NCBI GenBank assembly: GCA_965237675.1
Contig: OZ250150.1
Location: forward strand, 480,001 to 544,000
DNA length: 64,000 nt
Source of the DNA: Candidatus Latescibacterota bacterium
Lineage (GTDB): Bacteria > Latescibacterota > UBA2968 > GCA-2709665
Reading direction: 5' to 3'
Shown here in pieces: positions 39,169 to 42,937 of this stretch; the first letter of the stretch is position 1, and each line of letters begins with the position of its first letter. A program made the position numbers and the translations under genes. The notes below the pieces were generated by a model. The model did not search any database, was not told where the DNA came from, and worked only from the letters and a program-made list of their open reading frames with translations.

Positions 39169-39269
39169 CCTGAATAATTCACAAAAAACGTAGTTTTCTT
39201 ACCCAAGTCATTGTATTATATTATGGTTAGACGAATAACCTTAACACAATAAACCGGGAGGAAACTACC

Positions 39270-40643
39270 GTGGAGATTCAAGATAAACATCACAGGGTGT
39301 CTTTCGCAAGTCTTTCCGGCAAACAGGTAGAAGCCGCCTTCGATGGGGGCGTCCTGACCAGCCTGCCTGTGCATTGCACGCAGACAGGCGACAGCGGGGT
39401 AATGCTGTTGCGGGAGGTGGAGTACAAAATCGGCATTTTGGCTCGGATCGTTGAGGCGTTAGCCGACCCTCGGCATCCCAGTTATGTGGATCACTCATTG
39501 ACGGTGGACCTGCTCAAACAACGGGTCTTTCAGATGGCCTGTGGGTATGAGGATGCGAACGATTGCAATGCGTTACGCAAGGACCCCGGCTTCAAGGCGG
39601 CCTGTGATCGGTTGCCGCTGACCGGTGCGGCGCTGGCCAGTCAACCCACGATGAGTCGGTTCGAGAACCGGATCACCAGAGGTGACTTATATCGGATCGC
39701 GAAGGCCTTTGCCGATGGGTTTATCGCCTCGTATAAGAAACCGCCCAAAGCCATCCTGCTGGATATCGATGACACGGAAGATAAGGTGTATGGGTCTGGG
39801 CAGTTGTCGTTATTCAATGCGTATTTCAACGGCTATTGCTACCAACCGTTGCATATCTATGAAGGACAAACCGGCAAGTTGATCACGACGATTTTGCGTC
39901 CTGGCGTGCGGCCTTCGGGCAAAGAGATCGTTTCGATTCTCAAACGGGTGATCGCCTACCTGCGTCGAGCCTGGCCCCATGTGGCGATCCTGTTGCGTGG
40001 CGATTCTCATTTTTCGTGTCCGGAAGTTCACGCGTTGTGTGACACACAGAATGTGTATTTTGCCCTTGGACAAAGCGGCAATGCCAAGTTGCTGCCCAGG
40101 GCACAGCCCTTGATGGACCAGGCCAAAGCGCTGTATGCCGCTTCCGGCAAAACCGTGCGCCTTTTTTCCTCGTGGGACGATCAGGCCAGCACCTGGGCTT
40201 CGCCACGCCGCATCATCTGTAAGGCGGAAGTGACACCGCAAGGACACAATATCCGTTTCGTGGCCACCAACCTGAAACGCGCCAACCCATCATTCATCTA
40301 CAAAACCGTCTATTGTGGACGCGGCAGGATGGAAGGCTTCATCAAGAATCACAAGACCTTTCACCATTCTGATCGCACCTCTTGTCACACATTCGAGGCC
40401 AATCACTTCCGGCTCTTTCTCCACAGCGCCGCCTATGTCCTGTTGCAGACCTTGGCTGAAATGGGATTGCGCGGCACAACGTGGACGAACGCACAGGTTA
40501 ATACGCTGCAAAATCGCATCTTGAAGGTCGCCGGACGCGTTTGTGAGATGAAAACCAAAATCACGTTCCATCTGCCAACGGCGTTTCCACTCAAACACCT
40601 CTATGGCAAGATCCTCTACAATCTGGCATCGTCCGTTCCATAA
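39270..40643 (+). CDS. IS1380 transposase (DDE_Tnp_1_4) with 9-aa palindromic insertion
   Basis: FDGG.LTS, GYEDAND...LR.DP, LASQPTMSRFEN, LDIDDT, RGDSHF, Y..RGRME..IK and ANHFRL motifs. Confidence 0.9.
   Translation: MEIQDKHHRVSFASLSGKQVEAAFDGGVLTSLPVHCTQTGDSGVMLLREVEYKIGILARIVEALADPRHPSYVDHSLTVDLLKQRVFQMACGYEDANDCNALRKDPGFKAACDRLPLTGAALASQPTMSRFENRITRGDLYRIAKAFADGFIASYKKPPKAILLDIDDTEDKVYGSGQLSLFNAYFNGYCYQPLHIYEGQTGKLITTILRPGVRPSGKEIVSILKRVIAYLRRAWPHVAILLRGDSHFSCPEVHALCDTQNVYFALGQSGNAKLLPRAQPLMDQAKALYAASGKTVRLFSSWDDQASTWASPRRIICKAEVTPQGHNIRFVATNLKRANPSFIYKTVYCGRGRMEGFIKNHKTFHHSDRTSCHTFEANHFRLFLHSAAYVLLQTLAEMGLRGTTWTNAQVNTLQNRILKVAGRVCEMKTKITFHLPTAFPLKHLYGKILYNLASSVP
39361..39389. repeat. REP-like palindrome inserted in frame in the transposase
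   Basis: GCCTGCCTGTGCATTGCACGCAGACAGGC forms a hairpin; a related CCTGCGACAGACAGGC lies near 5337-5352. Confidence 0.65.
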
Positions 40644-40886
40644 CGCATCGTCCGGTTGAATCCGCCTTCACGTCTTGATCGACACCACCAAAGCCCAGGC
40701 AGACGTCTGTGCTCTTGATCGGGGCATAAAGGCCAACCTGTGACGCCCCGGCCCTACCGTGTTGCCAGCACGTGCCACTGAAACGGCTTGGACACTCCAA
40801 ATCCGTCACAGCCAGGGCTTCCTTCCGTTTCACGATTCACTCGGAACCTGTTCCTGCTTCCCGAAACTGCAATCCGTGACAATTCA

Positions 40887-42853
40887 GTAGAGTCGAGATG
40901 TGGCGCGGTGGTTTAGGAACGGCCTATCTGTTTCCGCCCTTTCGTCTGGCGGTGCCTCAATAGCCGCTCCGTGCTCCGTTTCCACATCCCGCTCATCGAA
41001 CCGGACGTGCGGATTTCCCGCATCCGGCTCTCGGACAAGGATTCATGCGTTCGCCCACGGAAGGTTGCGCGTCTGCACCTCCAGCCGGGTCAGGCCCAAC
41101 GTGTTGTAGAGGACCTCATCAGGGAAGCGTGCCGTTCCCATTCCCGGGATCTTGTGCTTGTTGCACAACCACCAGCGGAGCCGATGCCGGGTGTGGCTGT
41201 CCACACTCCGGTAGGCTTTACTGACCGGTCCAAGACAGAAGTAGTTGCCCCAGCCTACCAGCTTTCGGTTCAGGTGGGTAATCCGTTCTTGAAGGTCTTT
41301 CAGCAACCACCGTCGCGCTGTGGCCTCGCTGATGGCCTGGCAAATGTGCCGGATGGCCTTCTTTGACGGGCGCGTGCCGATGTAGGCCCTACCCGTCTTC
41401 GGCGAGTAACAGCGTTCGATGGTGTAGCCCAGAAAGTCAAATCGTCCTTCTAAAAGCGTGCATATGCCCGTCTTCGTCTCATTGACCGTCAACTTAAGCG
41501 CTTTCATGATGGATCGCATCGCTCGCATCGCTTCGGGCGCACTGCCGCGGCAGCAGATCACATAATCGTCCGCGTCGTTGACAATATGAGCGTTCAGGCG
41601 CTGCTGATGTCCCAGAAGCTGCCACCCCAGAATGAACCGGCGCATATACAGGTTCGCCAGCAACGGGGAGACGGGGGCGCCTTGCGGGATCCCCCTTCCC
41701 TGATCCTTGTTCGGCGTCGTTCGACGTTTCCGTCCCCGCGCGTCGGTCTCTTCAACCGGGGCGGTCAGCCACATCTTGATCAGACTCAGCATCTTCCCGT
41801 CTGAGATGCGACGCGCCACCGATTTCATCAACTCGGCGTGCGGGATCGTGTCAAAGTAGCCGCTCAAGTCAGCGTCGATGACCTGCGTATGGCCACGGTT
41901 CACCAGAGTGTGGACCGCCCTGATGGCGTCGTGCGCACTCCGATTCGGGCGGTAGGCATACTGCTGTGCTGGCAGGTCCGCTTCAAAGATTGGCTCCAAT
42001 ACCAACATCGCTGCCCTTTGCACCACCCGGTCCTTCACCGTCGGGATCCCCAGCGGTCTTTGCTTGCCGTCACCCTTGGGGATGTAGACCCGACGAATCG
42101 GATCCGCTCGATACGATTTGCTCCTCACGGCTTCCACCAGTTACTGGTCCCGTCCGTATGACTCGATATCCTCAAAGGTCTGTCCGTCCACGCCCGCCGC
42201 ACCGCCGTTGGCCTTGCAGCTGCGGTAGGCATAGTGCAGGATGTCCTCGCGATACACCTTGTCATACAGCGCATAGAATCGGTAATCGGGCGATTCCTTC
42301 GCTTTGGCATGCAACGTCCTCTGCAGCTTCCGAACCTTTTCCGGAGGTCTCAGGCCCATGCCACTCTCCCGGCTCTCGCTCCTTTGACGTTGGCCTTGAA
42401 CCGAGGCCCCTTCCCTCCACCGGCATTACCCGGCTTCACCGGTACTACGGGCCTCTCCGCCACCCCATCCGGCCCGGCCTGGCCCTCGCGGGCTGCCGGT
42501 TGGTGACCATCCACCACCGCTGGGGCTTCCCGTGTTGCGTCGGATCTCCTTGTATACATGCCGTCGCCACTACCCCGGCGGGACCGTTGGGTGCGCGTGT
42601 TGCTCCCTTCCCCAACGACGGCGGCCTTCCCCGAAATTCAGGCGGGTCGGCTCCCGCATTGCCTTTTTCGAGGCCTGCTCAGCGTTCATTCACGTTACGG
42701 CCTGCATACTCGCCGAGTCGCCTTGCGACCCTCTACACCGGAGGCTTCGGAGATGTCGTTGCCTTCCTCCCCGCTCCGATTGCTACCGACTGGAGCAACA
42801 TTTGTCGGGTGGGACTCTCACCCACTGGAGTTCCGCGCCTTTTCACGGCGCAC
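40887..42853 (-). mobile_element. Group II intron (RT without endonuclease domain)
   Basis: 5' end GTGCG at 42853; domain V GAGCCGGATGCGGGAAATCCGCACGTCCGGTTCG at 41030-40997; 3' end CTCGACTCTAC at 40887; EBS1 UGAAUU at 42640-42635. Confidence 0.9.
41043..42359 (-). pseudogene. ltrA: Group II intron reverse transcriptase/maturase, inactivated
   Basis: GVDG, IPK..G..RPLGIP..DR, DADL..YFD and PQG..SPLLAN motifs. In-frame TAA at 42143-42141; YADD reads DADD. Confidence 0.85.
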
Positions 42854-42937
42854 TGAATTATTCAGGCTGATATTGTTCAAGTCCGGCGGACCCAATTGCA
42901 ACGGCTGGCCGAATTTAGGCTATTTCAAAGTCAAATA

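Follow-up and report, generated by a model that had tools for sequence, protein, structure and literature searches.

Among the systems closest to the one described here, the group II intron RmInt1 has its target inside the transposase gene of an insertion sequence (IS) and not in an inverted repeat (IR), and class C introns combine a first intron-binding site (IBS1) of 3–4 nt with the lack of a second exon-binding site (EBS2) and the recognition of a stem-loop. RmInt1 is reported to show a lagging-strand-template bias, with ISRm2011-2 named as its target (PMC4615759, PMC5894124), and copies of a second intron, RmInt2 from Sinorhizobium meliloti GR4, are described only from the IRs of ISRm17, left or right (PMC4615759, PMC5894124). 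The IBS region of RmInt2 (−14 to +1) lies inside the IR, and the two opposed sites offered by each IS were argued to guarantee one on the lagging-strand template; the same paper states that RmInt2 tolerates EBS2 mismatches and that its mobility was shown experimentally (Martinez-Rodriguez et al. 2014, PMC4615759). Here, we describe a group II intron lodged in the terminal IR of an IS1380-family element, within a 64,000-nt stretch of the genome of a Candidatus Latescibacterota bacterium (contig OZ250150.1, positions 480,001–544,000; hereafter, the window). We consider it highly probable that the intron is a mobile, IIB-type member of group II without an endonuclease, homing to the outermost 13 nt of an IS1380-family terminal inverted repeat.

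The transposase of the window IS matched PF13701 (E = 8.6e-143) and the IS1380 model NF033539 (352 bits, cut-off 180). Reading the plus strand from 39169, the element begins with CCTGAATAATTCAC, such that its left tip is CCTGAATAATTCA/C (slashes mark boundaries between flank, tip, and the sequence or intron that follows). On the minus strand, the flank ...AATATCAG is followed by the tip CCTGAATAATTCA (42866–42854) and then by GTGCGCCGTG, where 42853 is the first intron nucleotide; the intron runs to 40887, its last bases being ...CTCTAC, and from 40886 the 3′ exon reads TGAATTGTCACGG. The intron, thus placed exactly 13 nt inside the right IS tip, runs outside-inwards and is antisense to the transposase gene. 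It displays the hallmarks of a group II ribozyme (GUGCG...CUAC ends, domain I, and domains V/VI), with minus-strand Rfam matches to group-II-D1D4-4 (RF02003; 109 bits, gathering score 49) and Intron_gpII (RF00029; 47.4 bits, gathering score 40), and its boundaries are consistent with four copies in its own genome and with ~70 relatives. A preliminary description of this DNA had pointed to an IS end directly followed by GTGCG, to a hairpin carrying UGAAUU, to the joint AATTCA/TGAATT left on removal of the intron, and to two intact 13-bp IRs. All of these are present: UGAAUU is enclosed in ACCCG-CCUGAAUUU-CGGGG, excision in silico produces the palindromic joint, and both IR tips are found at the IS.

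Evidence for guided insertion comes from comparison with related introns. Of 529 confirmed matches, 80 loci were kept and their boundaries mapped with nhmmer; covariation was computed on the first 480 nt of 70 introns and pairing statistics on 63 non-redundant sites. Exon positions −1 to −6 share peak mutual information (0.79–1.52 bits) with intron nt 214–219, in antiparallel register and with 72–98% paired. Each intron pairs its EBS1 with its own exon at a mean of 5.32 of 6 positions (six pairs in 34 sites, five in 21, four in 5, and two in 3), compared to a mean of 2.6 and a maximum of 3.06 when exons were shuffled among introns (1000 shuffles), and the 63 sites comprise 34 distinct EBS1 hexamers. 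Exon position +1 covaries in turn with intron nt 284 (1.2 bits, 93% paired; 59 of 63 sites paired, four not), indicating the EBS3-IBS3 contact typical of IIB introns. This places the window intron in the IIB structural type, with EBS3 contacting +1 rather than a delta base beside EBS1.

These positions are also supported by folding. In the RNAalifold structure of 23 diverse sequences, EBS1 forms part of a terminal hairpin loop, EBS2 falls within an internal loop of the stem enclosing that hairpin, and a 2-nt bulge contains EBS3 (column 328); compensatory changes occur in 45 of the 82 pairs of the domain I consensus fold. The hairpin whose terminal loop contains UGAAUU, expected in the Id3 loop, behaves as EBS1, and covariation identifies UGAAUU at 42640–42635 as the true EBS1. 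Copy C of the intron, elsewhere in the same genome, illustrates this well: its loop reads ACCCG-AUUAUCAGC-CGGGG, replacing the CCUGAAUUU loop shared by the window copy and copies B and D, and its UAUCAG(C) pairs with its own exon (G)UUGAUA. EBS2 is given as probable only, in view of its weak statistics. In a fixed register, nt 189–193 form 2.84 of 5 pairs with exon −10 to −14, against 2.19 for shuffled exons (maximum 2.59, 1000 shuffles), and a free best-run search gave only 4.06 against 3.39. Single cases are clear, including ACUGC with GCAGU in copy C, CGCUC with GAGCG in L075, CCGAC with GUCGG in L076, and GGGGG with CCCCC in L125; in the window copy, IBS2 is roughly GCCU at −14 to −11, including one flanking base at 42867. 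The preliminary description had also noted that the left IR is empty and differs at +1. The bases do differ (C left, T right), but the difference fails to explain the empty left IR, since the window EBS3 G forms a Watson-Crick pair with the left-end C and only a wobble pair with the right-end T.

The 5.6-Mb genome contains 20 near-full-length copies of the IS, including that of the window, with 82–100% identity, besides many short derivatives comprising an end only. We listed 37 left and 35 right ends, with a usual target duplication of 4-bp YTAR (CTAG, TTAG, CTAA). In the other copies, the 13-nt tips match at 10–13 positions, the genome contains the 13-mer CCTGAATAATTCA 20 times, and the sequence at right ends without an interruption is ...GAC(G/A)ATTC/ATGAAT...; among the 35 right ends, only that of the window is followed by intron sequence. 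The intron itself is present in four full-length copies (the window copy, B, C, and D) and four 5′ fragments, and half of these eight 5′ ends adjoin IS1380-type tips ([CT]C..ATTCA). Both IS ends are represented among the four occupied tips: the window copy occupies a right end, and a left end is taken by copy B (TTAG/CCCGGATTATTCA/intron/CAAAAAGAGGTAGTTTCC), downstream of which lies a diverged IS1380 body (L046); the other two are fragments F and H, preceded by TTAA/TCTGGATAATTCA and ATAG/TCTGACTCATTCA, respectively. Copy D resides in a 26-bp palindromic right-end remnant, CTAA/CCGTGACAATTCA/TGAATTAATCAGG. Copy C, the only copy with an uninterrupted reading frame, occupies TTAG/CAGTCCGTTGATA/AAGTTGC, the tip of a ~170-bp MITE (miniature inverted-repeat transposable element) with YTAR flanks, and its EBS1 and EBS2 differ from those of the window copy and both match CAGTCCGTTGATA. 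This tip occurs 29 times exactly in the genome with one occurrence occupied; most are YTAR-flanked, with the partner CAGCCCGTTGAAA ~160 bp away. With respect to replication (GC skew; origin ~0.18 Mb, terminus ~3.95 Mb), six of the eight copies are co-directional, a bias that agrees with expectation for endonuclease-less introns; this count is weak evidence, and two copies are near the origin or terminus.

We also noted several nested arrangements in this genome. Copy B (L002) contains a second group II intron of 859 nt (G000:C1:2686134-2686992; RF02003, 111 bits), a twintron arrangement in which the insert lies at host-intron nt 1855/1856 (CGTCCGGTT/CGATGAG), has GTGTG...CCCTAC ends, and keeps only a short reading-frame remnant. 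The same insert is present in copy D, and similar mini-introns lacking an open reading frame (ORF), of 749 nt and 761 nt, are found in L116 and L058. IS copies in turn insert into introns: a full IS1380-type copy lies inside the reverse transcriptase (RT) gene of copy D (G000:C1:3958408-3960094; L004/L023), at TTAG and with a TTAG duplication. The nesting is therefore reciprocal, the IS being inside intron D and intron D inside an IS-end remnant. The MITE targeted by copy C also has longer variants, one of which, of 324 bp, is present in the window itself at 46504–46827 (CAGTCCGTTGATA/AAGT), flanked by TTAG and TTAT.

The related loci are distributed over Latescibacterota, Planctomycetota, Gemmatimonadota, Acidobacteriota, Myxococcota, Eisenbacteria, Binatia, Actinomycetota (Coriobacteriia), Armatimonadota, Pseudomonadota, and Syntrophia-type deltaproteobacteria. 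A YTAR motif is present at −17 to −14 or −16 to −13 in 25 of 66 non-redundant sites, compared to 0.5% per position nearby. An inverted partner of the 13-nt exon was found downstream in 20 of 65 loci with up to two mismatches (3 and 1 of 65 in offset controls) and in 10 of 65 with up to one mismatch (0 and 1 in the controls), a conservative test given that the tips of the window IS family differ by three mismatches. Together, 35 of the 65 loci carry a YTAR flank and/or an inverted partner, and nine carry both. By the inverted-partner test and Pfam/NCBIfam matches, the targets include other IS families and MITEs: an IS1380-family element (L084), an IS5-family element of ~880 bp (L075, L086), an IS1634-family element of ~2 kb (L089), a MITE of 163 bp whose 13-bp repeats are perfect and whose duplication is CTAG (L082), and MITEs of 160–230 bp (L067, L097, L119). 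Transposases of the IS1380, IS5, and IS1634 families are located directly downstream of the intron in L084, L075, and L089, respectively; sites adjoining rve-type and IS110-type genes are weaker cases. Many of the ORFs downstream are either ordinary genes or without a match to any family, which is consistent with small MITE targets but not proof of them. The idea that all relatives reside in IS1380 elements was dropped, as tblastn of the window transposase against the 80 loci found it directly downstream of the intron in L084 only, and upstream in L050.

Empty sister copies of the targeted tips exist in these genomes as well. The L082 MITE has at least 40 copies with the intron in the query copy only, its empty tips reading CTAG/CCCGGAnnATTCA/yGAGCCC; in 11 examined, the sequence was ...AGCCCGnAnnATTCA/(C/T)GA(G/A)CC.., preceded by CTAG in nine. 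Among the four copies of the IS5-type element in the L075 genome, the intron is present at left ends in two cases and at a right end in one (L086), and two empty left ends read CTAG/AGCGTGTTTCAT/AAATAGG. On a quick maximum-likelihood tree of 51 RT sequences, the label for an IS1380 tip (10 rows) requires at least 5–6 changes, indicating frequent target switching inside the lineage. Related introns at unrelated sites had been named beforehand as the observation that would speak against homing to IS ends; what the relatives show is the same offset in IS1380, IS5, IS1634, and MITE tips of other phyla, and together with the guide pairing and its covariation at EBS1 and EBS3, this strongly supports the homing proposed earlier.

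Two further kinds of site were seen among the relatives. Palindromic solo elements of 25–26 bp with YTAR-like flanks carry the intron exactly at their center, for example, CTAG AACCCATCTCAAA/ATGAGATGGGCT CTAG; these occur at L085 (1680–1697 with 3587–3602), at L061 (2465–2481 with 4485–4501), and at copy D, and may be remnants of IS ends. Separately, six introns from one Latescibacterota metagenome-assembled genome (L049–L052, L060, L062) share the target ...TATCCTGTnnATCCATG/ with repeated TATCCTGT-like motifs, and L052 has an inverted partner 62 nt downstream.

The window copy of the intron is a dead relic. Its RT frame, in domain IV, is interrupted by an in-frame TAA at 42143–42141 and by a three-codon deletion beside this stop, opposite which related RNA contigs have a 9-nt insertion, and its catalytic motif is DADD where relatives have YADD. 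The protein is 85% identical to that of copy C over 363 aligned residues, and its family assignment was made on this intact copy, which matched TIGR04416 (350 bits, cut-off 300), PF00078 (RVT_1), and PF08388 (GIIM), and nothing further. The copy C protein stops ~34 residues past the maturase domain and hence has no endonuclease domain.

Several observations weigh against homing to the IS tip. The EBS2 signal is statistically weak, and 30 of the 65 loci lack a YTAR flank as well as any inverted partner in the ~2.8 kb available, several of these sharing targets with positive loci. By a loose tip pattern, four occupied tips in the genome compare to 35 right-end-like and 31 left-end-like empty ones, the RT genes of three of the four full-length copies are broken, and the window copy is oriented opposite to replication. 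The tip beside the window intron is of the left-end type, CCTGAATAATTCA, not the usual right-end CCCGATTAATTCA or CCTGATTAATTCA, and so the arrangement may be recombinant rather than the simple product of homing. Neither mobility nor splicing was observed. The expression data comprise assembled contigs only, from three RNA libraries and from one run of unrecorded kind that contributed most matches. Contigs 90–95% alike cover the intron, three of them stopping at the IS tip (42866–42868); none joins 42854 to 40886, which, in assembled contigs, is not evidence that splicing is absent. The joints listed in these contigs skip the ORF (e.g., 41032 to 42405), and such contigs look like ORF-less relatives from other organisms.

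It was earlier suggested that the intron travels as cargo of a 3.7-kb composite IS, and a broader form of this idea, that it spread mainly as a passenger of an IS-plus-intron composite transposing whole and not by retrohoming into each tip, seems unlikely to us. IS1380-type tips and the intron lineage do co-occur in several phyla, the tip 13-mer remains outermost such that the transposase could in principle find it, and a YTAR-like site borders the right junction (TTAG in the same-genus genome G010, TCAG in the window), which fits intramolecular transposition or recombination. However, the window composite lacks a target duplication (plus strand, TTAG left and CTGA right), and in nine genomes of the same genus its two flanks lie ~2.9–4.4 kb apart; in G010, the right flank runs, at TTAG, into unrelated sequence without the IS. 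A deletion or recombination therefore accompanied the present arrangement, in which 3–4 kb of host DNA is missing. A search for composite copies with target duplications yielded only a possible partner for L063 (four mismatches, matching TTAA) and, in the DNA at hand, none for L084, copy B, or L057. Passive carriage also sits poorly with the covariation of EBS1 and EBS3 with the tip, relevant solely to RNA-guided insertion, with the occupation of left ends, right ends, and MITEs alike amid many empty sister copies, and with the repeated change of target on the RT tree.

Recognition of a DNA palindrome or hairpin, as by class C introns, with IS ends struck for being palindromic, we judge to be even less probable. 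Some sites do lie at the exact centers of short palindromes, such as AATTCA/TGAATT in the window and CCGTGACAATTCA/TGAATTAATCAGG at copy D, L085 is a 25-bp palindrome between two CTAG, and L054 is a 41-bp element. At many targets, though, the inverted partner is 160–2000 bp away, left-end sites like ...ATTCA/CAAAAA are not palindromic, an EBS1 of 6–7 nt and an EBS2 are present, unlike in class C, and base pairing alone fully explains the sites. Two papers (PMC4424553, PMC8919778) note that group II introns of bacteria frequently lie within or beside other mobile DNA, and a one-off ectopic insertion into the IS would need no relationship to the site; the recurrence of the same junction in this genome and across phyla, the EBS match, and the existence of empty tips of the same sequence make such a coincidence extremely improbable. 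Homing to the 13-nt IS tip accounts for the window locus as a 3.7-kb nested mobile-element scar with an associated host deletion.

Two further features were noted beside this locus. A sequence resembling the right IS tip, ACAGAATAATCAGG/CTAT, is located at 42925–42945 on the minus strand, ~60 nt from the occupied tip and between it and the end of the upstream gene; it predates the present insertion, given that G010 carries AGCAGAAAAATCAGG/CTAT. To the left of the IS, the host gene is truncated (38500–39168), and the halves of this 669-nt segment match places ~2–2.5 kb apart in relatives, which could be explained by another deletion in this genome or by matching to a repeat internal to the gene. 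A tRNA gene is present further away in the window (54900–54973, minus strand; RF00005, 75 bits).

The observed pairing rules, geometry, use of both ends, empty sister sites, and decay of the window copy may be joined in the following mechanism. The intron RNA would pair with the tip through EBS2 (about −14 to −10), EBS1 (−6 to −1), and EBS3 (+1) and reverse splice into the strand running inwards from outside the IS. Since its protein has no endonuclease domain, DNA copying is presumed to start from a primer, the nascent lagging strand, at a replication fork, by analogy with RmInt1 and RmInt2. Both IS ends serve as targets, given that the tip is nearly the same at both. By changing EBS1, EBS2, and EBS3, the lineage retargets to other IS and MITE tips and keeps the same geometry: 12–13 nt from the tip, inwards, and beside the YTAR target duplication. 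An intron that comes to lie behind the 13-nt tip probably inactivates the IS end concerned, as its insertion would part the cleavage tip from the remaining transposase-binding repeat.

More tentatively, and with slightly more doubt than belief, we extend this to all of the kept relatives (protein identity of at least 62%, ~ten phyla), which may form one lineage of endonuclease-less, IIB-type introns that is a specialized parasite of transposon termini and a natural, heritable silencer of IS ends. The guide in this lineage would cover just the terminal 12–14 nt of an IS or MITE IR and the last base of the YTAR duplication, the insertion would always be inwards, and the lineage would hop among the IS1380, IS5, IS1634, and MITE families through changes to EBS1, EBS2, and EBS3. 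If so, one class of mobile element lives on the most conserved few bases of another, and the 34 EBS1 hexamers on one scaffold would provide a clear example of RNA-guided retargeting in nature. With their readable targeting rules, such natural introns without an endonuclease are possible gene-targeting vectors for poorly studied phyla, and an intron of this family could serve in annotation as a marker of an IS or MITE tip 12–13 nt upstream. The question raised is whether insertion into an IR disables transposition and thereby limits IS expansion.

Table 1. Coordinates of the IS and the nested group II intron, numbered by window position.
Feature	Position	Strand	Basis
Left IR tip, CCTGAATAATTCA, +1 = C; empty, flank TTAG	39169–39181	+	Reading of sequence; IS ends compared genome-wide
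IS body from left tip to intron insertion point; 40886 is the +1 base (IBS3, T on minus strand)	39169–40886	+	
IS1380-family DDE transposase gene, apparently intact; 457 aa, GTG start	39270–40643	+	PF13701, NF033539
Group II intron, 1967 nt, GUGCG...CUCUAC	40887–42853	−	Rfam and comparison of copies
Ribozyme domains V and VI	40887–41032	−	RF00029, 47.4 bits
Reverse transcriptase/maturase gene, without endonuclease domain, inactivated	41043–42359	−	
EBS3, G, intron nt 284, in 2-nt bulge; pairs with exon +1	42570	−	Covariation and fold
EBS1, UGAAUU, intron nt 214–219, terminal loop of domain I hairpin	42635–42640	−	Covariation; RNAalifold hairpin, columns 218–245 of alignment A1
Probable EBS2, AAGGC, intron nt 189–193, internal loop of domain Id stem	42661–42665	−	Weak pairing signal
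5′ part of ribozyme domain I	42690–42827	−	RF02003, 109 bits, full model 1–138
Right IR tip, 13 nt, forming the 5′ exon; IBS1 AAUUCA (−6 to −1)	42854–42866	−	

Homing to IS tips is already known from RmInt2, and it is possibly the lineage-wide habit that is unreported: apart from RmInt2 and ISRm17, the literature covered held no group II intron in an IS1380 end and no lineage-wide IS-tip habit, which is not proof of being unpublished, as most subscription journals are outside that coverage. The present intron resembles RmInt2 in being endonuclease-less, of the IIB type, and located inside IS inverted repeats of which both are used. RmInt2 belongs to class D (motif LX3AX3PXLF[V/A]HW; PMC4615759); the protein of the present intron lacks this motif, the end being without ...F[V/A]HW, and so the intron is of another class. 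The accessible parts of PMC3552965 and PMC4424553 contained no testable class signature other than that of class D. The reports on RmInt2 concern a single strain and a single IS, and its mobility was shown experimentally, whereas the habit described here is seen in ~ten phyla, at the tips of IS1380, IS5, IS1634, and MITE elements, and is known from sequence alone. With RmInt1, the intron shares the lack of an endonuclease and a natural homing site in a multicopy IS (ISRm2011-2; PMC4615759). It differs from class C introns in its EBS1 of 6–7 nt, in its candidate EBS2 and its EBS3, and in a site read by pairing. Introns of class C (IIC), inserted at terminators and attC sites (PMC4424553), are likewise endonuclease-less and aimed at a generic repeated DNA feature, the attC sites being imperfect inverted repeats of another mobile system. 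IStrons (a group I intron with IS200/605; PMC4227781) similarly bring a self-splicing intron and an IS into intimate association; an IStron, however, is one chimeric element moved by a transposase, whereas the window locus appears to hold two autonomous elements, one nested in the other, with the intron moving as a retroelement.

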